Assembly (NCBI GenBank): GCA_016219175.1
Contig: JACRCD010000044.1
Coordinates: 54,116 to 118,115 of the forward strand
DNA from: Deltaproteobacteria bacterium
Lineage (GTDB): Bacteria; Desulfobacterota; Desulfobulbia; Desulfobulbales; SURF-16
Reading direction: 5' to 3'
DNA: 64,000 nt
Shown: positions 46,963 to 61,235 of the stretch, one piece after another
Position numbering within the stretch: position 1 is the stretch's first letter
Layout: each line of letters opens with the position of its first letter
The notes under the pieces: model-generated
Database searches by the model: none
Seen by the model: the letters and a program-made list of their open reading frames with translations, nothing else
Told to the model about the DNA's origin: nothing
Made by a program: the position numbers and the translations under genes

Positions 46963-48441
46963 TTACAGCGGACTGGAAGGATGGTCAAAAAGACTTGCCA
47001 AGGCCTTATCAAGCGGGAAACCGGCGGGAAAGTGGTGGTTATAAAAGGTGGTGGCTAACCGCCATTCTTTTTTTACCTCCTCAAGATGGGCGTTGATCTG
47101 TCGCATGAAACCATCAACGTGGGCGCGGTCAAGGAATTCCCCGTAAAGAAGATAATCTTTCCCCTTGCGGAAAAGCATCACTGTTTCCGGCGCATGGCTG
47201 CTGCCGTTTCCCCATTCCGACACGGATTGCAGCAGTTTGTGTCCGAGTTCATCAAGAATCTGGTCGGCAACCACATGGCCTGTTTTCCGCTGAAACTTCT
47301 CGAAAGCCGGAACATCGACCAGAAAAAGGTCGTAGTTCAGGGCATTGTTGCGCAACAGTTTGGCGTCATCAAGGAAATAGAGATAACGGTAATTGTAGAA
47401 ATCCGTCAGGGGTTCCCTGAAATAGGTCTTGCGCCGGAATACTTCAATGTCTTTCATGAATCCGGCTGTCACCTGCCGGGGGGGAGTGACCTCCGGAATC
47501 CGCCCGGCTATTTTTTTCAGCACGTTGACTATGTCCTGATCGAGCTGTCCCGCCGTTGCCTCCTGTTCGAGAATGGCCAAGGCTCTGTCCTGCGGCATGG
47601 AATGTTTGTAGGGCCTTCTGGAGACAAGGGAATCATAGGTGTCCGCCACGGCGATGATGCGGGCGAAAAGGTCGATTTCATCACCCTTGAGTCCGGCCGG
47701 ATAACCGCTGCCGTCGAGCCGTTCATGATGGTTGAGGATGATGTTGGTGATGCGGTCGTCCTGCAGGTGCCGGGCAAAGAGTTTGGCCCCGACCAGGGGG
47801 TGGTACTGCATGATGAAGCGGTCCCGCGGGTCAAAGTTGCCTGGTTTGAGCAGCACATCGTCAGGAATGGCGGTTTTGCCGATATCATGGACCAGGCAGC
47901 CGAAGCGAATGGCTTTCAGGTCATCATCGCTTAGCTCCAGTTCCCGGCCGATGAGGCCGGCAATCTCGGCAACCTGGGCCGCATGTTCAAAGGTGTACTG
48001 GTCCCGGTTGGCGAGCATCTCGGCCACGATCTCCAGGATATCGTGCTGCATGACCTCGCTCTGGCGGCGGATTTTTTCTTCGGCCGCGCGCCGGTTGCGC
48101 ACCTCCTCGGCAAGCAGCGCATTGTTTTCCCGGAGCTGCTCACGGCTCTGCTTGATTCCGGCGATGGTGCGTCCGGTAAAAGTAATGACCAGGAAAACAA
48201 AGATGGAGCCGCCGAATAAAATGAGGGATGAGAGGATTTCCTGCGGGAAAAAGGCCTGGTCACCCAGCAGCGCCAGCGAACCGGCATAGCCGCAGAGAAA
48301 AAGCGCCATCAGCCAGAGGAGAGGGTGCCAGCGGCTCTGGAGTTCATCGGGCAGGCTCCTGGTCATTTTCCGGCCCAGCGCAATGGAGGCGGCAAGCAGG
48401 ATGATGCCGGCGATGATGAAGAAGGCGGAAATGGTCGTCAT
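46963..48441 (-). CDS. membrane HD-GYP phosphodiesterase with degenerate C-terminal GGDEF-like domain
   Basis: 3 TMs, VHDIGK, HHERLDGSGYP, RRPYK; C-terminal EPLTDFYN..GHVVAD..RKGKDY lacks GGDEF. Confidence 0.88.
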   Translation of the reverse strand: MTTISAFFIIAGIILLAASIALGRKMTRSLPDELQSRWHPLLWLMALFLCGYAGSLALLGDQAFFPQEILSSLILFGGSIFVFLVITFTGRTIAGIKQSREQLRENNALLAEEVRNRRAAEEKIRRQSEVMQHDILEIVAEMLANRDQYTFEHAAQVAEIAGLIGRELELSDDDLKAIRFGCLVHDIGKTAIPDDVLLKPGNFDPRDRFIMQYHPLVGAKLFARHLQDDRITNIILNHHERLDGSGYPAGLKGDEIDLFARIIAVADTYDSLVSRRPYKHSMPQDRALAILEQEATAGQLDQDIVNVLKKIAGRIPEVTPPRQVTAGFMKDIEVFRRKTYFREPLTDFYNYRYLYFLDDAKLLRNNALNYDLFLVDVPAFEKFQRKTGHVVADQILDELGHKLLQSVSEWGNGSSHAPETVMLFRKGKDYLLYGEFLDRAHVDGFMRQINAHLEEVKKEWRLATTFYNHHFPAGFPLDKALASLFDHPSSPL

Positions 48442-51628: not shown

Positions 51629-54097
51629 ATGGGACAGAAGTCCGATCAAAACGTCTTTGTCAGGTTTGACAGACTGCGGGACAGTCTGAAACAAATTGTT
51701 TTCGATCAGGATCTGGCCGTGGATGAGGTGGTGGATGCCTTCCTGCACATGGCTTATAAACCGGTCGAATCCCCTCCCAAGGCGATTTTCACCTTCCTTG
51801 GCCCTCCTTCCGCGGGCAAGACCTACCTTGGCCGCACCCTGTCAGCCCAGCTCTCGGAATATTCGGCTTTCAAGCTGTTTGATATGGAGCAGTTCAGTGA
51901 TCCTGAAAGCGGGACTCAGCTGCTGGGACAGAGACTGACCGTTGACGGCGGCGTCCAGGATGGAGAGTTGCCCTGTTTTATCAGGGAGCACCCGAAAGCA
52001 ATCATTCTCTTTGATGCCATTGAGAAGGCGGACAATCAGCTGCAGCTAGCCCTGCTCAATCTGTTCACCCGCCGTGAGGAGGACAGCGGCGTCAACTGCG
52101 GCGAAGTAATCGTGATTTTTACCTCCAGCCTTGGCAGCGGTTTTTTTCAGGACAGAAAATACCGGCAGGACTTCAAGGAAAACAAGCTGCGGGCCCAGGC
52201 CCTGGTTATGGAGGCCATCTCCAAGGAAAAAAAAACCGTGTACGACAGCGTGCAGCCGGCTCTGGCTCCCGGTTTGCTTGCCGCCATGGCCAGGAATTTT
52301 ATCATCCTGTTCAAACCGTTAAGTCTTGAAACCATGGCCCGCATCGGCGGGCAGGCCTTGAATAGTCATGCCGAGCAGTTTGCCAAACTAAGCGGAATGA
52401 AAGTGGAATACCATGATTTCGCTCGCCTTGTCACCCTGCTGACCCTGTCCTTTTCTCCGGATATAAGCGCCACCAGGGTAAGGCAGAAACTGCCCGATCT
52501 CGTTCTCGGCAGAATCATTAATCTGGTCCGGGACCAGAGGAAATATCCCCGTCACATCGTCTGCGGACTCTCCCGGCAGGCCCAGACCTTTCTGGAGAAA
52601 ATTCTCCGGGATAAAGAGGCGCTGCTGCAGAGACTTTATAAAAAGAACGAAACCGTGGAGATTTCCTGGAAAGAGACGTGGTGCGGGGAGAAACTCACCT
52701 GCACCATCAACCGGGCGGAACTGAAAAGATTGCCGCCGGCCAGCGGTTTTTTCAGGGAGCCGTTGCCGAATATGGAGTTCTCCACTCTTGAGTTTAAAGA
52801 CATCGCAGGCAACAAGGCCACCAAAAAAAATCTAAAACAGATTGTCAGAATTCTTAAGGAACCGGAGCTGGTCAAGAAATTCGGCATCGACATGCCGAAG
52901 GGATTGCTGCTGTATGGGCCGGCCGGCGTGGGCAAGACGATGCTGGCCAAGGCCTTTGCCCGGGAGACGGAAAGACCCTACGTCTATGTCTCCAGGAGCA
53001 ATCTTTTTGATGCGGACTACATCCGCCATGCCTATGCCAAGGCCCGGGAGTTCGCTCCGAGCATAGTCTTTCTTGACGGCATTGATGTCAAGGGACTTAT
53101 CGAGGGCGTCTATGCCTCCATGCCCGATGATCAGCTGATCCTGGAGATTGACACCTTGTCCGCTGACCCTGCTGACTCCGTCTTCACCGTGGCCACTGCC
53201 CAGAACAGGGACGATGTCAGTGCCCGGGTCATCGCCCCGAACAGGATTGACACCTTTGTCGAGGTTCCCGAGCTTGACCGGGACGCCAGGCGTTTTTTCA
53301 TTGAAAAGATTCTGGAAAAACCCAATGACGGGAAAATCAACGTGGAGAGGGTGATCCGTTATATCTCCGGCATGAGCGGCTACGACCTGCAGCGCATCGG
53401 CAAGGAGGCCTCTCTTTACGCCATCCGCAATGATCTTGACTGTATTACCGAAGAGATCCTCATCGAGGAAATAAACATTATCAAGTACGGTTACAAGCTG
53501 GAGAAAAAGCACATCCGCAATCTTGAGCAGGATCTGAAGATTACCGCCTTTCATGAGGCCGGCCATGCCGTCCTGTCCCATCTCCTGCTGCCGGATATCA
53601 AAATCGAGCAGGTGACCATCGCCCCCAGGCTGAAATCCATGGGATTCATCTCGTACAGCATGGGTGAGTTCCCCGGCAATATCTCCAAGGAGGAGGTGTT
53701 CGACAATATCTGCGTACTTCTCGGCGGCCGGGCCTCCAGCATCAGAAAGTTCGGCGCCAGGGGGATTGACACCGGCGCGGTAAACGATCTGGAGGTTGCC
53801 ACCCATCAAGCCTATGCCGCTGTCGCCAGTCTCGGCATGGATGAGGAAATCGGCTATGTCCACACGGACACCCTGTCCCAGAATGTGAGCAGGCAGATGT
53901 TTCTGTCCAAGGTTGAGGCGAGGGTCAGTCATTGGATGAAGGAGGCGGCCGCCAAGGCTGAGGTGCTCGTTGAAAAACACTGGGCCAGGGTTGAACGGCT
54001 GGCGTCTGTCCTCATCCGGCAGGAAATTGTCGATGGCGCCGAGCTGGAGAAGATCATGAAGGAGGGAGTGACAAAGGTTCAGGGGGTAAGGAATTGA
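51629..54097 (+). CDS. soluble fusion of ClpB-D2-like AAA + FtsH-like AAA + M41 metallopeptidase
   Basis: GPPSAGKT/FDAIEKA; PKGLLLYGPAGVGKT/FLDGID; TAFHEAGHA, LGGRA, TGAVNDL; no TM or signal. Confidence 0.88.
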   Translation: MGQKSDQNVFVRFDRLRDSLKQIVFDQDLAVDEVVDAFLHMAYKPVESPPKAIFTFLGPPSAGKTYLGRTLSAQLSEYSAFKLFDMEQFSDPESGTQLLGQRLTVDGGVQDGELPCFIREHPKAIILFDAIEKADNQLQLALLNLFTRREEDSGVNCGEVIVIFTSSLGSGFFQDRKYRQDFKENKLRAQALVMEAISKEKKTVYDSVQPALAPGLLAAMARNFIILFKPLSLETMARIGGQALNSHAEQFAKLSGMKVEYHDFARLVTLLTLSFSPDISATRVRQKLPDLVLGRIINLVRDQRKYPRHIVCGLSRQAQTFLEKILRDKEALLQRLYKKNETVEISWKETWCGEKLTCTINRAELKRLPPASGFFREPLPNMEFSTLEFKDIAGNKATKKNLKQIVRILKEPELVKKFGIDMPKGLLLYGPAGVGKTMLAKAFARETERPYVYVSRSNLFDADYIRHAYAKAREFAPSIVFLDGIDVKGLIEGVYASMPDDQLILEIDTLSADPADSVFTVATAQNRDDVSARVIAPNRIDTFVEVPELDRDARRFFIEKILEKPNDGKINVERVIRYISGMSGYDLQRIGKEASLYAIRNDLDCITEEILIEEINIIKYGYKLEKKHIRNLEQDLKITAFHEAGHAVLSHLLLPDIKIEQVTIAPRLKSMGFISYSMGEFPGNISKEEVFDNICVLLGGRASSIRKFGARGIDTGAVNDLEVATHQAYAAVASLGMDEEIGYVHTDTLSQNVSRQMFLSKVEARVSHWMKEAAAKAEVLVEKHWARVERLASVLIRQEIVDGAELEKIMKEGVTKVQGVRN

Positions 54098-54734: not shown

Positions 54735-55829
54735 CTATTCATCCCCATCTTCTTCTTCATCCGGGCAGCTTTCCTCATCAACCCGCCGGAGACCGTCCAT
54801 TACCAGCTTCATGAACTCGCCGATTTCCGCGGCCTTCATTTCCTCGGGTGATAGACCGGGGCTGAATTTGAAGCGGCCTCCTTTTTTTTCCGCGATGATG
54901 TGGTACAACGCCTCCTGATTCTTCTCTCCCGCGTAACTGGCATTGATGATGCAACCTTCCCGGAAAGAGATGCGGGCCTCACCTTTCAGGAATTCAATGG
55001 AGAGTACCCCTGTTTTGCTGTTCATGTGGAAGATCTGGAACAGGTCCACCTGGGGTATTTCATCCAGGGAGCCGCTCATGGCGGAGGCTATTTCCTGCAG
55101 ACGCGCGGCGTTGCTCCTGGTGAGCCGGTCGGAGAGGAGGCGGATAAAATAAACATAGAGCGAAGGATTGTCGCTCAGCAGTTTTTTCATCTCATCCCCG
55201 TTGATGGTCAGCGCCTCGGTGGTGTCAATGGCCCTGACCGTGGCGCAAACGGCCTGGGAGGTAAACTGGCTCATCTCACCCAGCACCTCGCCGCGGCCCA
55301 GCACGGCAATCCTCTCCTCGCCGTCCAGCACCGCCACCTTGCCCGACAGGATGATGACCACATAGCGGCCTTCCTCTCCCTTGCGGAATATGTCGGAGTT
55401 CGGGGTAAATTTTCGGTAGGTGAAACAGGGCAGGACCTTGGCCAGGTTTTCTTTATTCAGGGCCTGGAAGATACCGATATTTTCCATTCCGTCAGCCAGC
55501 CGGTGGGGAAGATGCGTTTGCGTGCCGAGGATCTGCGCCAGGGAAACAGCAGCTTCATCCTGCGAGGCCGCCTTGTTGAAATTCATTTTGAACTTGATAA
55601 GACCGGAACAGCCGGAGCAGCTGAAGAGCTTGTCGGAGCTCGATTCTGCCTTGTCCTGGGAGAGCAGGGAAAAGAGCAGTTCCGTCATTTCCCTGGCCAG
55701 GATAAGGCAGACAGGTTTATTGCCGGGGACCAGCAGGGCCTTATCCGTCAGCTCCAGATTTTCGTTGAGTTCATAGAGAGGACACTTCTTGTTCTCAACA
55801 ATTTGGAAGATTGCCTTAAAAGCGCTCAT
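54735..55829 (-). CDS. cNMP-binding + DUF4388 protein with Cys-rich N-terminal domain
   Basis: CPLY..VCL..CSGC; IF.KGE.G..GEVLGEMS; MSGSL...DLFQ...KTGVL...F.EG.I..A. Confidence 0.85.
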   Translation of the reverse strand: MSAFKAIFQIVENKKCPLYELNENLELTDKALLVPGNKPVCLILAREMTELLFSLLSQDKAESSSDKLFSCSGCSGLIKFKMNFNKAASQDEAAVSLAQILGTQTHLPHRLADGMENIGIFQALNKENLAKVLPCFTYRKFTPNSDIFRKGEEGRYVVIILSGKVAVLDGEERIAVLGRGEVLGEMSQFTSQAVCATVRAIDTTEALTINGDEMKKLLSDNPSLYVYFIRLLSDRLTRSNAARLQEIASAMSGSLDEIPQVDLFQIFHMNSKTGVLSIEFLKGEARISFREGCIINASYAGEKNQEALYHIIAEKKGGRFKFSPGLSPEEMKAAEIGEFMKLVMDGLRRVDEESCPDEEEDGDE

Positions 55830-56063
55830 TATAATATGTTTTCCATGAGGTGTTGTTTTTCGTAGCTCCCGTACAGTTAATTCTTGTTCTTAGCTGTATC
55901 TTTAGCTATTGTTTTGGTAGCTGTACAGGTGTTTAGACGGAAGGTTGCCGGCTGGAAAACCGGTGCTAAAAACATATATGAAGTGAGTTCCAGCCCTGCG
56001 GCCCATAGTCCGCGGCCCCACATCCGAGTCATTAACTTACCATTTTTCCGGGATTTTTCCTCT

Positions 56064-58112
56064 ATGTCCGTATCCAATAGCCATCTGGCGGAAGAATATG
56101 ATGAGATCAAGAACAGATTTTCAGCCTCTCCTTATATTCGGATTCTTGCCACCACTGGAACTCCTCCGGAAAGTTATGAAATTGAATACCGGGTCAAAGG
56201 CCTAAGCAAGGTTGCCGAAGGGCGGGCTGTTACCGTAGACACCCATCGGGTGCAAATTGTTCTGCCCTTCGGTTATCCTCATTTTCCGCCCAATTGTAAA
56301 CCGCTTACCGCAATTTTTCATCCTGATTTTGATCCTGACGCCATCTGCATCGGCGATTTCTGGAACAGTTCTCCTTCCCTGGCGGATCTCATCGTCCATA
56401 TCGGCAAGCTGATCAGTTATCAGGCCTGGAGCATGGAAGATGTCTTTAACCTTGAAGCGCTCAACTGGGCGAAAGCAAACACCGAACTTCTGCCGCTTGA
56501 CAGGGCTGACTTCACGGCGAGGGTGGAGCAACGGGATGAAGAACCTGCTTTGTCTGCTGGTGATGTGAATGAAAGCAAAGGGTCATCCCCTGTCCAGCCC
56601 GGTGAGGCGGAGATTGCCTCTCCGGCTGCCGCAATAGCGCCAACGCCCCCGGTTCACCGGGACAGAGGCCCGGGAAAAGCCCGGACATTAATGAAGTGCG
56701 CCGGCGCGGTGCTTTTGTTCGCTTGCGCCTTTGGAGCCCTGGTGATGTTTGATTTTTATCATTATGACAGGGCAAAGCGCACATGGAGCGAGGTGGCCTC
56801 CCTGGTTGGTCAAAACAACTATGTTGAGGCCGACACGCGGCTCAAGTCAGCCCAGGCCTTGCTGGATAAGGTGCTGTTGGTCAAAAAAAGCGAAAGGCTG
56901 GCCCTGCGGCAGGAGATTAGTAAGCTCCGCGATTCACAACCCTTTAAAGAAGGGGTGAGCGGCAGAAGTCTGGTGGATGGCCGTTATGTGACAGCCAAGG
57001 AACAGCAGGAAATCAAAGAGGTGTCCGAACTGCTGGCCGAAGGGGAAACGCTTGCCGCGGCGGAGAGATGGGCCGAGGCCGTTGAGGTGTACGGCAAGGC
57101 GGCGGCAAGAAGTGCAACGCTCGGTCCCCTTGCCCCCATGCCGGCTGAGCGGGTCGATGGCTTGCTGAAGGAAAGCCGCGTTCATGAGCAGATCTCGACC
57201 GGCAACGCCTACAGGTCTGAAAAAAAATGGGACAAGGCCTTGAACCATTTTGAAGAGGCTTTGGCATTGCTGGACGGGATGCAGGGTGAGCAGTGGCTGA
57301 CCACCAGAAGTGAGGTCGAGGTGCTCATCGGCGAGTCTGGTTTTTTGACGCATGTAGAGCAGGGCAACGGTTTTTTTTCAGGCAAACAATGGTCCCAGGC
57401 CGCAACCAGCTATGACAAGGCCTTGAAGATGATCAAGTTAAAGCGTGAGGAAGGGGACTTTGATGTGAAAAAAGTCGCGGGACAGCGCGATCTGGCCCGA
57501 TTTAATGCGTTCTATGAGACAGGGCTGGCGGATTTCACCGGCGGGCGCTGGGATGGGGCCATCGCTAACCTTGAGAAGAGTGAAGCGCTGCTGGCTACCG
57601 CCAGTGCAGCCGGAACCCTGCGTGATATTACCGCAAGCAGTATCAAACGAAAAATTCTCAAAGCGCAGGTGAACCGGGGAGAGGAGGCGGTGGCGGCCTA
57701 TCTTGAAGAGGAAAAATACGGCCAGGCCAGCGCGGCCCTGAAATCCCTGGTCGGTTTGATAGACAAAAGCCCTTTCGCATCCGAAAAGGAGTTTGCGCAG
57801 GTGAGAAATTCGGCTGCGGACAGAATGATCAAAAACCGGTTTCTTGATGAAATCCAGCAAAAGATAACCTATCTGCACGGCAGATATGAGGCTGTTTTCA
57901 AGGAATTTTTCCCCTCTGTCGCCCGCTCGAAACTTTCCGACCCGCAAATCACCTTTGTCAAACAGGAAGGAAATCTTCTCGTTTTTAAAATGCAATGCCA
58001 GGAAGAGGTCAGAAGTCAGAATTTTACCCTGGAGATGATCTACCAGTATGACACGAAATCCGGGGAATGGAGCGCCCGTCCCCAGGCAGAAGGCAACACG
58101 GACGACAGGTGA
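56064..58112 (+). CDS. E2/UBC-like domain + TM helix + TPR-repeat protein
   Basis: IVLPFGYPHFPP..T.IFHPDF..ICIGDFW..SL..L UBC signature (Cys95); TM about aa 213-229; repeated W..A...Y/F..AL TPR helices. Confidence 0.85.
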   Translation: MSVSNSHLAEEYDEIKNRFSASPYIRILATTGTPPESYEIEYRVKGLSKVAEGRAVTVDTHRVQIVLPFGYPHFPPNCKPLTAIFHPDFDPDAICIGDFWNSSPSLADLIVHIGKLISYQAWSMEDVFNLEALNWAKANTELLPLDRADFTARVEQRDEEPALSAGDVNESKGSSPVQPGEAEIASPAAAIAPTPPVHRDRGPGKARTLMKCAGAVLLFACAFGALVMFDFYHYDRAKRTWSEVASLVGQNNYVEADTRLKSAQALLDKVLLVKKSERLALRQEISKLRDSQPFKEGVSGRSLVDGRYVTAKEQQEIKEVSELLAEGETLAAAERWAEAVEVYGKAAARSATLGPLAPMPAERVDGLLKESRVHEQISTGNAYRSEKKWDKALNHFEEALALLDGMQGEQWLTTRSEVEVLIGESGFLTHVEQGNGFFSGKQWSQAATSYDKALKMIKLKREEGDFDVKKVAGQRDLARFNAFYETGLADFTGGRWDGAIANLEKSEALLATASAAGTLRDITASSIKRKILKAQVNRGEEAVAAYLEEEKYGQASAALKSLVGLIDKSPFASEKEFAQVRNSAADRMIKNRFLDEIQQKITYLHGRYEAVFKEFFPSVARSKLSDPQITFVKQEGNLLVFKMQCQEEVRSQNFTLEMIYQYDTKSGEWSARPQAEGNTDDR

Positions 58113-58871: not shown

Positions 58872-61235
58872 TCAGCCCTCGGCTTCGACCCGCATGTAGC
58901 TGATCTGCCGGTTGATCAGATCATCCATGCGGGCCAGGTACGTTTCCAGGGGGAGCCCCAGGAGGGAGGCAAGTCCGACCCGCAGATCAAGGACCTGGAT
59001 ATCACCGGCCAGGGAGGGGGAATCGACAACCTTTTCCGCTTCCTCGTACCGGGTCATTTTTATCATGGCCTTGGCCCGGGTTATTGCCGCTTCCGTGCTG
59101 GCGGATGGGGTCCGACCGAGGATGGCCAGGGTTTTTTCAGGTTGGTTGGCGGTCAGCAGAATCCGGCCGGCATGCTCATGCATGGAACCGTCCGGAGGCA
59201 GCAGGTCAAGCAGATCATTGGCCTGCTCCCGCAAGCCGAGTTTCAGGTAAAAATTAAGCAGGCTGAGAAAGTCGGTCATCTCCTGGGTGAGCTTCCATGG
59301 TACGGAGTCCCTGAGGGTGAGGTAGTACAGATTCTCATTCTGCTTGCGCAGGCCGGCAAGATCATTGAAACGGTAAATGTTGCGCGGCGGATTTTCCAGA
59401 AGATCATTGATGTTTTGCAGCAAAACCGGCTCCATCACCTGATGCAGAAAGACCTGGAAGGAGACGCTTCGCCCGGCCAGCCCGGGGTGGCCGTAATCCC
59501 CGGGAAATCGTACCTCGAACTGGTTGACCGCACCTGCTCGCATGCCCAGCAGGCCACTCTCGAAATCAGGCAGCACCTTGCCGCTGCCCAGAACAGCGTC
59601 CTGGAAATAGGCCTCTGTCTCGGGCACAATCCGTCCGTCAAGCAGTCCCTTGCAGTCGTATATGACCCTGCAGCCCGGGGTAACCGTGCCTCGCCGTTTG
59701 AATTTGCAGCCGGTGAAGGGTCCGGCCAGGAACTGATTCGCCTCGGGGCTATGGGAAAATTTCTCCCGCAGGGTGGTCAGGCAGGCATGGGCCGCCTGAA
59801 ATTCCTCCAGCAGAAGATATATCTTCGCCAGCATGATGTGGGTTTCCGGACGACCGGCAAGCGCCTCGTGGTTGGCGGTAATAAAACCCGCCACTTCAAA
59901 AAGATTGCTGCCCGTGGCGATGTTTTCCGTGAAATCCTGACGGTTGAGGCGCCACAGCAACCCCATCTGTCTGATTTCTGCCGCGCTCATGGTTTCGGTA
60001 TGAAAGTCGCGGCAGATGCATTGGTAGGCAGGCCTGGTCATGGCCGAGGGTTTGATGCCATGGGCGGCTGGGTCGTCCAGCATGGGGATGCCGAAGAAGA
60101 GATGCAGCTGCTGGGAAATGGAATTGCCGCTGATCACCACCTGGTTTGCCTTGACGAAATCCAGGGTTTTTTCGGCGTGCCGGAAAGATTCACCGGGCAG
60201 GCCGAAGAGGGTGAAGAGTTCGACGTTGATGCCCGCTTCCCGCACCTGTTTGATGACGCTTGACATTTTTTCCGGATCAAGTCCTTTGTTGATCCTGGCC
60301 AGCACCCCCCTGTCAGCTGATTCAAGGCCGAAAGCCAGGGTGGTGGCCCCGGCTTTTTTGAGCAGGGCGAGCAGTTCCGCGTCAATGAGATTATATCTGG
60401 TCTGGCACCAGAAGGTGAGGCCGGGACATTCGGCAATGAGGCGCTGCAGCAGATCAACCAGCCGATTACGGGAATAGGCGAAGTTGGGATCGGCAAACCA
60501 CAGGTCATTGATCCCCCTGGCCCGCAGGTATTTGATTTCGGCAATCACCCGGTCCAGGGAATGAAACCGCACCTTTTTGTTGCTGGCCCGGGTCGTGTAG
60601 CAGAAGGTGCATGGCGAGGTGCAGCCCCGGGAGGTCAGCAGGATCACCCGGCTTTTGCCCCTGATGTCAATGATCTCTTCCAGGTAGGGCGAGGGCAGGA
60701 GATCCAGGTCGTCGGGAACAGGTGCGGCGGGGGTGGTGATAATTTTTTCCTGATCCAGGAAAGTGATGCCCGGCGCCTCGGAAAGCGGGCTGCCGTTATC
60801 GAGCGCCACGGCCAAAGCGGGCAGCACGCTTTCGGCTTCTCCCCGGCATAAGACGTCCACGTCTTTCATCTGCCGCAGGGCTTCGCCGTTCATGAAGGTA
60901 ACCTGGGGGCCGCCCAGGATTACCAGGATGTCCGGCCGGATCTGTTTGGCGTAGCGGGCCCAGACCAGGATCCTGTTGATGTTTTCCTCATAGGTCGAGA
61001 AGCCGAGTACCGCCGGTTTTGTTGACTGCAGTGTGTCGCGCAAGAGTTTGGGGGAAAGCGGGCTGCCTTTGTAGTCGCCAAAAATCGCGCCGCTGTAGCC
61101 GGATTTGTTGAGGGCGGCCAGACCGTAGCCTTGGGAGATGGGAATGGTGTCCGGCGAATCAATGGTTGCCCATTGGTTGACATGGATGAATAGAAATTGG
61201 GTTTTGTTTGCCTGTCGGCTTCGATTCATGATCAT
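58872..61235 (-). CDS. B12-binding radical SAM protein fused to a trigger-factor-type FKBP domain and TPR-like tail
   Basis: LGGPQ..GEAE B12 domain; SRGCTSPCTFC; FGLESA; G.RV..D..G.LDG..LGSG..LPDFE.GL.GM.AG..V.FP.DY...LAG....F.V. Confidence 0.88.
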   Translation of the reverse strand: MIMNRSRQANKTQFLFIHVNQWATIDSPDTIPISQGYGLAALNKSGYSGAIFGDYKGSPLSPKLLRDTLQSTKPAVLGFSTYEENINRILVWARYAKQIRPDILVILGGPQVTFMNGEALRQMKDVDVLCRGEAESVLPALAVALDNGSPLSEAPGITFLDQEKIITTPAAPVPDDLDLLPSPYLEEIIDIRGKSRVILLTSRGCTSPCTFCYTTRASNKKVRFHSLDRVIAEIKYLRARGINDLWFADPNFAYSRNRLVDLLQRLIAECPGLTFWCQTRYNLIDAELLALLKKAGATTLAFGLESADRGVLARINKGLDPEKMSSVIKQVREAGINVELFTLFGLPGESFRHAEKTLDFVKANQVVISGNSISQQLHLFFGIPMLDDPAAHGIKPSAMTRPAYQCICRDFHTETMSAAEIRQMGLLWRLNRQDFTENIATGSNLFEVAGFITANHEALAGRPETHIMLAKIYLLLEEFQAAHACLTTLREKFSHSPEANQFLAGPFTGCKFKRRGTVTPGCRVIYDCKGLLDGRIVPETEAYFQDAVLGSGKVLPDFESGLLGMRAGAVNQFEVRFPGDYGHPGLAGRSVSFQVFLHQVMEPVLLQNINDLLENPPRNIYRFNDLAGLRKQNENLYYLTLRDSVPWKLTQEMTDFLSLLNFYLKLGLREQANDLLDLLPPDGSMHEHAGRILLTANQPEKTLAILGRTPSASTEAAITRAKAMIKMTRYEEAEKVVDSPSLAGDIQVLDLRVGLASLLGLPLETYLARMDDLINRQISYMRVEAEG

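Follow-up and report, generated by a model that had tools for sequence, protein, structure and literature searches.

To our knowledge, the bacterial proteins with the fold of ubiquitin-conjugating enzymes (E2s) described so far all belong to cassettes that combine them with a ubiquitin-activating enzyme (E1), a ubiquitin-like protein (Ubl) and a JAB peptidase, and that are tied to conjugation or phage defence. In eukaryotes the same UBC fold is also found in the UEV, RWD and AKTIP/Fts proteins, which lack the loop with a His-Pro-Asn (HPN) type motif and function as ubiquitin binders or as parts of eukaryotic complexes, and in the tail-anchored E2s of the endoplasmic reticulum, Ubc6 and UBE2J, which have a cytosolic E2 domain, a single transmembrane (TM) helix at the extreme C-terminus and no luminal domain, and are catalytic together with E1 and a ligase (E3). 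Here we describe an E2-fold gene from a 64,000-nucleotide stretch (hereafter the window) of contig JACRCD010000044.1 of a Desulfobulbales bacterium (assembly GCA_016219175.1, completeness 98.4%), which encodes a membrane protein with tetratricopeptide-like (TPR-like) repeats and is paired with a divergently transcribed gene for a protein with a PATAN domain. We propose that its product is a bitopic adaptor, whose cytoplasmic E2 fold would serve the PATAN partner as a docking site without catalysing a reaction; we infer the binding from the pairing of the genes, and we rate the chances of the proposal as about even.

With the canonical E2 core (Pfam family UQ_con; UBE2S, UBE2C, Ubc13) the N-terminal domain of this protein shares the UBC fold, the YPxxPP loop, the HP[ND] loop, an aligned Cys and a conserved Trp. 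It differs from that core in that the family has His-Pro-Asp (HPD) in place of HPN, and Arg or Lys in place of the Cys in 29 of 80 species; in that the protein of the window stays below the Pfam cut-off; and in that the domain continues into a TM helix and a predicted periplasmic TPR part, in a genome where we found no dedicated E1, ubiquitin or E3. The resemblance to UEV (Mms2/Uev1, Tsg101), RWD and AKTIP/Fts lies in a UBC fold that serves as a binding module without thioester chemistry, as implied by the loss of the Cys, but here the HPD motif is invariant and the protein of the window retains the Cys. Ubc6 and UBE2J likewise carry a cytosolic E2 domain on a single TM helix, but the protein of the window continues for about 450 residues (aa) after it. 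Its gene comprises the following features.

56064 to 58112, plus strand: E2-fold gene, encoding a bitopic membrane protein of 682 aa (translation without stops; full-length AlphaFold2 model with a mean confidence, pLDDT, of 85.4)
56064 to 56513, plus strand: UBC/E2-fold domain, aa 1-150, predicted to be cytoplasmic (UQ_con, PDB profile, AlphaFold2, Foldseek, VIA-align)
56319 to 56327, plus strand: HPD motif H86-P87-D88, counterpart of the HPN of E2s (codons CAT CCT GAT)
56346 to 56348, plus strand: codon TGC of Cys95, at the position of the catalytic Cys of E2s (read directly; phmmer alignment)
56523 to 56693, plus strand: Pro/Ala-rich disordered linker, aa 154-210 (pLDDT below 50 throughout in the full-length model)
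56688 to 56744, plus strand: single TM helix, aa 209-227 (Kyte-Doolittle 19-aa mean of 2.13)
56820 to 57908, plus strand: TPR-like helical repeats, aa 253-615, predicted to be periplasmic (secondary structure of the model; Foldseek; Pfam TPR_2)
57930 to 58076, plus strand: C-terminal four-stranded sheet, aa 623-671, packed with a long helix, aa 575-615 (alignment and full-length model)

The open reading frame (ORF) starts with ATG at 56064 and ends with TGA at 58110-58112, as read directly from the codons. A longer frame from TTG at 55884 is unsupported as the start, because the aligned orthologues begin at the Met encoded at 56064.

According to the structural models, the N-terminal 150 residues adopt the canonical UBC/E2 fold. 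The signature of the superfamily is in place (L67-P68..Y71-P72..P75-P76...T82.I84-F85-H86-P87), and UQ_con matches the whole protein with E = 6e-4 (19.8 bits) and aa 1-160 with E = 5.9e-5 (23.1 bits), both short of the cut-off of 27 bits. In the PDB, phmmer picks up E2s; in the best of the alignments shown (to 2r0j), HPD is paired with HPN and Cys95 with the catalytic Cys. A profile of the N-terminal domain built from 37 genomes (A2) retrieves 184 distinct PDB sequences at E ≤ 0.01 (best 1.1e-6), the 60 listed matches being E2 chains, and UQ_con matches 36 of the 37 family members at E ≤ 0.01 (best 3.4e-9). The AlphaFold2 model of A2 (pLDDT 89.7, pTM 0.86) finds only UBC folds among the 50 Foldseek matches shown (best E 1.6e-6), all of them catalytic E2s except Fts (8qat_D) at rank 17, and VIA-align superimposes it on UBE2S with Z = 13.9 and a root mean square deviation of 3.0 A over 131 aa. 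Thus, fold and sequence similarity to UQ_con both place the domain in the UBC superfamily. Neither UEV nor the Prok-E2 families occur among the Pfam matches of the 682-aa protein at E ≤ 1. Automatic labels also call the relatives E2-like ("ubiquitin-protein ligase" at JGI, and "ubiquitin-conjugating enzyme E2 family protein" for one Atlas cluster).

The segment at aa 209-227 is the only hydrophobic one of the protein, the corresponding helix of the model starts at aa 208, and four Lys or Arg residues lie within the 15 aa that precede it. A single hydrophobic stretch is likewise present in 34 of 34 homologues (given as two overlapping windows in P0030 and P0034), with at least three Lys or Arg residues in the preceding 15 aa in 30 of the 34. 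Because the basic residues precede a single TM helix and an N-terminal signal sequence is absent, we infer from hydropathy and charge a cytoplasmic location for the E2 domain and a periplasmic one for the TPR part and the small C-terminal domain. With the full-length model Foldseek retrieves, besides E2s, the TPR proteins Hop, CTPR, RapH and LGN; Pfam scores TPR_2 (E 2.8e-9), TPR_11 and TPR_1 above their cut-offs at aa 380-402 only. With these matches and its run of helical repeats, the protein qualifies as a member of the TPR repeat proteins. The C-terminal alpha+beta domain contains C645 and W669, invariant in the orthologue alignment; it matches no Pfam family, and its structural neighbours in the Atlas are generic alpha+beta proteins only. 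A match to the NCBIfam family FlbB (18.3 bits against a cut-off of 110), which spans the TM helix, was rejected. An earlier note on the window, made from the sequence alone, had read this layout in outline, and most of it stands: the UBC signature with HPD for HPN and Cys95 is there in the codons, AlphaFold and Foldseek return a UBC fold for aa 1-150, the Pro/Ala linker, the basic residues and the single TM helix are where it placed them, and the predicted topology agrees with its N-in arrangement of E2 domain, linker, TM helix and TPR ectodomain. Its figure of about 450 aa for the TPR-like repeats is approximately correct, the helical repeats covering aa 253-615 and the remainder up to aa 671 being a helix and a four-stranded domain.

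We counted the residues of the active-site region in the best 80 of the 285 relatives that turned up when 185,579 species genomes were scanned with a pattern. HPD, with Asp in place of the Asn of HPN, is present in 80 of the 80 species, and H61, D90 and W100 are equally invariant, including in members without the Cys. The residue at the position of Cys95 is Cys in 51 species, Arg in 18 and Lys in 11 (Cys 14, Arg 12, Lys 10 and Tyr 1 in the set of 37 genomes). A second cysteine, C78, is kept in 65 species and replaced by Val in 8 and by Ala in 7; both cysteines are present in 51 species, both are lost in 15 (Val or Ala at position 78 with Arg at 95), and C78 is kept without C95 in 14. The two relatives encoded in genomes G327 and G365, which belong to a different family within the phylum, have HPN, but Asp at the position of Cys95. 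In an unrooted FastTree phylogeny of 75 full-length proteins, from which six rows shorter than 400 aa were omitted, at least two changes separate Cys from Arg or Lys, and at least three are required for the Cys, Arg and Lys states. Hence the Cys of an active E2 is not a conserved feature of the family, though it is present in the 682-aa protein, and the residue at this position is dispensable across the family while the gene stays intact and mostly single-copy. Since Cys95 is unconserved and no dedicated E1 or Ubl was found in the genome of the window (see below), thioester chemistry cannot be the conserved function of the family. Conservation of the E2 domain peaks in the YPxxPP loop (aa 67-80, 9 of 14 positions conserved at 90% or more) and in the HPD loop (aa 86-100, 7 of 15), and is lowest in helix 1 (1 of 17), which we take to be the helix that binds E1 and E3 in canonical E2s. 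The absolute conservation of HPD and D90 suggests that the old active-site loop is itself a functional surface, or that it binds something; as a speculation, Arg or Lys at position 95 could pair with the acidic residues of HPD and D90.

No dedicated partner for an E2 was found in the genome of the window. Its sole true ThiF is encoded on another contig, in a thiazole operon of the order thiF-thiS-thiG-radical SAM; a second, weak match to ThiF turned out to be the Rossmann motif of a pyridine-nucleotide oxidoreductase. A whole-genome search found no match to JAB or Prok-JAB, and neither ThiF nor JAB is encoded in the 64-kb window or adjoining the 21 loci that we compared. A search for ubiquitin (PF00240) also gave no match, but its control was silent in every genome, so that the result is uninformative. 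Thus, the searches revealed no cognate E1 and Ubl in the genome or the neighbourhood, the only ThiF and ThiS being those of the thiamine operon, and the gene belongs to no operon or fusion with E1 and JAB of the kind represented by the E1/JAB/Ubl cassettes, CBASS Cap2 or the Bil type. The earlier note had recognised no E1, JAB or Ubl partners in the 64 kb, and for the families searched this holds. For comparison, a locus from another family of the phylum (L144, G657:C68, 6818-9777, minus strand) contains a compact E1/Ubl/E2 cassette, in the order: ThiF-type E1 of 424 aa (PF00899, E 1.5e-49), an ORF of 74 aa, a YukD-like Ubl of 94 aa (E 1e-5; 26.6 bits, with the cut-off at 27), an E2-like protein of 189 aa and a DUF4870 membrane protein. 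This E2-like protein is soluble, has HPN and the Cys, and matches the profile of our family with E = 3.9e-8; by its gene content, the cassette shows a predicted catalytic context for a relative of the family. Bacterial E1/Ubl/E2(/JAB) cassettes are treated by Iyer, Burroughs and Aravind 2006 (PMC1779556). The family shares with them, as exemplified by L144, the YPxxxP and HPN-type loops and a distant sequence relatedness, but the gene of the window differs in lacking E1 and Ubl neighbours, in being membrane-anchored and in being paired with a PATAN gene, and it falls outside the cassettes as the passages of that paper devoted to them delimit them (PMC1779556).

The family is largely restricted to one order. 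Of the 301 genomes that were sampled from the order of the window, 165 encode the N-terminal domain; by family the counts are 24/39 (f1), 69/73 (f16), 69/73 (f17), 1/16 (f7) and 1/3 (f10), with none in the other twelve. Nearly always there is a single copy, as in the genome of the window; six genomes have two. The titles of the best 80 records are almost all from Desulfobulbales (Desulfobulbaceae, Desulfocapsaceae, Desulfurivibrionaceae, Ca. Electrothrix gigas and several DSM strains), the others being broader (Proteobacteria, delta proteobacterium, Thermodesulfobacteriota, uncultured bacterium) except for one from Desulfobacterales. Cultured strains with the family include Desulfobulbus alkaliphilus DSM 24258, Desulfogranum mediterraneum DSM 13871, Desulfogranum japonicum DSM 18378, Desulfofustis glycolicus DSM 9705, Desulfopila sp. 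IMCC35006 and Desulforhopalus sp. IMCC35007, and there is also one cable bacterium. When 401 genomes were sampled across the phylum, only three matches lay outside the order, against six inside it with the genome of the window counted: in G327 and G365, which belong to one genus, proteins of roughly 1,055 aa that combine UBC and TPR parts, and in G657 the weak match (E 3.9e-8). Among 1.84 billion representative proteins, 319 clusters match the profile at E ≤ 1e-30, a number that rises to 908 with the threshold at E ≤ 1e-10; in the best 150 clusters the proteins are mostly 650-1,040 aa long, and the domain is N-terminal in nearly all of them, an exception being residues 205-348 of a 352-aa protein. 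Short homologues were considered as a standalone form and discarded; they lie mostly on short contigs and are probably fragments at contig ends. In a genome of the same genus as the window (L004, G225:C105) the E2-domain frame is only 207 aa long inside a long contig, which may mean that the gene is frameshifted or a pseudogene, or that the assembly is faulty there. The UBC-TPR protein of the two genomes outside the order (L143, G327:C63, 5254-8418, minus strand; L145, G365) scores 30.4 bits with UQ_con, above the cut-off, has its TM helix far downstream (aa 650-668), and is followed by a TPR lipoprotein-like gene, with no PATAN partner adjacent.

The most constant companion of the E2-fold gene is its divergently oriented neighbour, for which the locus shows the following features.

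54735 to 55829, minus strand: divergent partner, 364 aa, with a four-Cys domain, a cyclic nucleotide (cNMP)-binding domain and PATAN (DUF4388) (Pfam and locus comparison)
55560 to 55829, minus strand: N-terminal domain of the partner, aa 1-90, with invariant C16, C41, C71 and C74 (alignment A3)
55167 to 55415, minus strand: cNMP-binding domain of the partner, aa 139-221 (PF00027, E 6.3e-17)
54771 to 55076, minus strand: PATAN/DUF4388 domain of the partner, aa 252-353 (PF14332, E 1.7e-20, 73.7 bits against a cut-off of 25)
55830 to 56063, no strand: intergenic region of 234 bp shared by the divergent pair (ORF coordinates)

When the ORFs of the window were clustered with those of 20 further loci, the partner proved to be adjacent and divergent in 19 of 21. 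In 75 of the 80 loci of the larger set, which overlaps with the set of 21, it is encoded on the other strand upstream of the E2-fold gene, at a distance of 128-763 bp from the start of the latter. Three families of the order show this pairing, and the other neighbours differ between families; the loci of f16 and f17, for instance, are surrounded by genes for SecDF, HD, HAD and SIS-CBS proteins. The gene called an orphan in the earlier note is therefore orphaned as regards the ubiquitin machinery, but not as regards this four-Cys/cNMP/PATAN partner, present in 75 of 80 loci and overlooked in the note. A scan of the shared intergenic region for promoters and terminators found nothing above shuffled sequences.

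The partners at other loci score 60-71 bits with PF14332, and include short versions (206-231 aa) that have no cNMP domain. The profile of the cNMP domain retrieves PKG, PKA-R and CRP from the PDB. Where the motif R-[ST]-A of CRP and PKA, with what we take to be their phosphate-binding Arg, should stand, the partner alignment reads V/C-A-T-V, and because of this the ligand may be one other than cAMP or cGMP. For the four-Cys domain (spacing C-x24-C-x29-C-x2-C) we found no Pfam family, no relative in the PDB, where the partner matches only through its cNMP domain, and no Atlas model. The family defined by this domain extends beyond the pair: 184 of the 301 genomes of the order encode it, often two to five times. 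Elsewhere in the genome of the window (G000:C22:30977-32068) there is a full-length paralogue, 39% identical, among genes for NrfD, Fe-S, nitroreductase and restriction-modification proteins, which are uninformative. The state of Cys95 appears to follow the length of the partner (Cys with long partner 46, Cys with short 1, Arg with long 2, Arg with short 14, Lys with short 9, not assessable 8, one of the Arg/short rows, L090, being an ORF-calling artefact). We nonetheless rejected co-evolution of Cys95 with the cNMP-containing partner, as the tree has only 2-3 changes of the Cys state and two of partner length, and none of the two independent pairs is informative.

What the PATAN domain does is best described in cyanobacteria. 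The relevant passages of a study of Synechocystis (bioRxiv 10.1101/2021.06.11.447907) equate DUF4388 with PATAN, present it as a protein-binding output module that binds PilB1 and PilC, and report that a PATAN protein is found at the inner membrane even when PilB1 and PilC are deleted, so that additional proteins mediate its localization. The partner of the window shares this output domain with the PatA-type regulators (PixE, PixG and LsiR of Synechocystis), but those are PATAN-REC proteins driven by chemosensory kinases, and here PATAN is C-terminal and preceded by the four-Cys domain and sometimes the cNMP domain.

From these data the following picture can be drawn. The family would be a lineage-specific, mostly single-copy adaptor of the inner membrane, in which the E2 fold may act as a non-catalytic protein-docking surface, like UEV, RWD and AKTIP/Fts in eukaryotes, and in which the likeliest client, as the gene pairing suggests, would be the divergently encoded cytoplasmic protein with the four-Cys, the optional cNMP and the PATAN domain, held at the membrane in this way. 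The periplasmic TPR part, as a sensor or scaffold, would bind something and thereby be linked to a PATAN-type output, and by analogy with the cyanobacterial PatA-type regulators one may speculate that this output acts on a type IV pilus, a secretion ATPase or machinery of the cell pole. We favour docking because the Cys is dispensable, no dedicated E1, Ubl or JAB was found, conservation is focused on the loops rather than on helix 1, the gene is order-restricted and mostly single-copy, and the pairing with PATAN is tight. The earlier note had offered Ubl conjugation, Cys chemistry or UEV-like binding as the output. As the output of the family, the first two do not survive the distribution of Cys, Arg and Lys (51, 18 and 11), the Asp of two relatives and the lack of a co-occurring E1 and Ubl in the genome of the window; UEV-like binding is the sole one left, precisely the outcome that the note had attached to an unconserved Cys95 without E1 or Ubl.

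Several observations weigh against this picture. HPD, D90 and W100 are invariant even where the Cys is missing. In UEV and RWD domains the HPN motif is normally degraded. Taken together, therefore, they indicate that the active-site loop is under a constraint that a plain scaffold would not readily explain. Cys95 is retained in 51 of 80 species, the one of the window included, which leaves room for lineage-specific Cys chemistry in the Cys-bearing lineages. The partner is missing in 2 of the 21 loci and not adjacent in four assessable loci of the 80 (L078, L081, L125 and L132, of which L132 is titled Ca. Electrothrix gigas; a fifth without it has a flank of only 369 bp), and its paralogues occur without an E2-fold gene. 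The contact between the two proteins is deduced from the pairing of their genes, and any downstream target is likewise conjectural; a predicted complex of E2 and partner gave a median of 0.42, with 0.24 for a control in which chain 1 was swapped, and counts neither for nor against it. The link to type IV pili, a speculation, comes only from the cyanobacterial PATAN-REC proteins, and no pilus genes lie near the E2-fold gene.

One alternative is a scaffold that works without PATAN, its E2 fold forming homo-oligomers, like RWD dimers, or binding another cytoplasmic client, with the PATAN gene merely co-regulated through the intergenic region that the two genes share. It would be compatible with the dispensable Cys, with the four assessable loci that lack the partner and keep E2-fold ORFs of 786-962 aa, like their relatives, with the UBC-TPR protein of G327 and G365, and with the independent existence of partner paralogues. 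However, adjacency in 75 of 80 loci over three families whose other neighbours differ exceeds what co-regulation usually needs, and we regard this explanation as unlikely.

A genuine E2-type transferase confined to the Cys-bearing lineages, in which Cys95 takes up a modifier (ThiS/MoaD-like or unrecognised) whose charging depends on the housekeeping ThiF or on no E1 at all, and hands it on to a membrane-located target, perhaps the partner, is in our view quite improbable. The alignment of Cys95 with the catalytic Cys, the invariant HPD loop, a fold closest to catalytic E2 cores (nearly all the top Foldseek and VIA matches are catalytic), the distant relative with HPN and Cys that is linked to E1 and Ubl, and the ThiF and ThiS encoded in the genome would all be expected of such an enzyme. 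They have to be set against the Arg or Lys of 29 of the 80 species and the Asp of two further relatives, against the confinement of ThiF and ThiS to the thiamine operon in a genome where no JAB peptidase was found, against the poor conservation of helix 1, and against the persistence of a mostly single-copy gene across three families, unlike the mobile cassettes of conjugation and defence. Harder still to credit is the complete version, a working transferase tethered to the membrane, charged by ThiF/ThiS or by an unrecognised route, that modifies the PATAN partner or another membrane-proximal target when the periplasmic TPR part binds its ligand; if true, it would make the protein a transmembrane receptor with a Ubl-type conjugation output, and the Arg and Lys lineages its natural locked variants.

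Finally, a thiol or redox/metal sensor, in which C78 and C95 and a Zn or Fe-S site of the partner's four Cys would sense redox state or sulfide, with the Arg and Lys lineages fixed in one signalling state, would suit the joint presence (51/80) and joint loss (15/80) of the two cysteines, the invariance of the four in the partner and the record titles of the related loci, presumably those of sulfur-cycling anaerobes, but it is very improbable in view of C78 occurring without C95 in 14 of 80 species and of the absence of any metal or redox motif recognised by Pfam.

Some other genes of the window deserve mention. An FtsH-like gene (51629-54097, plus strand) was considered as a partner and dismissed, being upstream in only 4 of 21 loci. 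It encodes 822 aa with AAA_2 (aa 50-198), AAA (aa 426-547) and Peptidase_M41 domains, has no hydrophobic segment at the TM threshold used, and may be a soluble double-ring relative of FtsH; in each of the four loci that contain it, the E2-like protein has about 700 aa and the partner is long (362-364 aa), as in the window. The gene at 58872-61235 (minus strand, 787 aa) codes for a fusion of a B12-binding radical-SAM protein with TPR repeats and an FKBP-type prolyl isomerase, which is conserved downstream in 5 of 21 loci; in all five the E2-like protein, at about 700 aa, and the partner, in its long form, again resemble those of the window. At 46963-48441 (minus strand), a few kb away from the gene for the cNMP/PATAN protein, is a gene of the HD-GYP type (HD_5) with a weak partial match to GGDEF, likely a c-di-GMP phosphodiesterase.

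We found no published description of this family, the survey of Burroughs et al. 2008 and the supplementary trees of bioRxiv 10.1101/514885 lying outside the scope of the search, in agreement with the remark of the earlier note that it knew of no characterised example of the architecture. A eukaryote-like E2 fold that is conserved over three families of a bacterial order and tied to the membrane and to a PATAN regulator is a surprising finding. As the family occurs in cultured strains, its function is accessible to experiment. If the E2 domain indeed serves for docking, the family would parallel the eukaryotic exaptations of the E2 fold represented by UEV, RWD and AKTIP, and it would give a name to a membrane anchor for a PATAN protein, a question left open by the study of Synechocystis.

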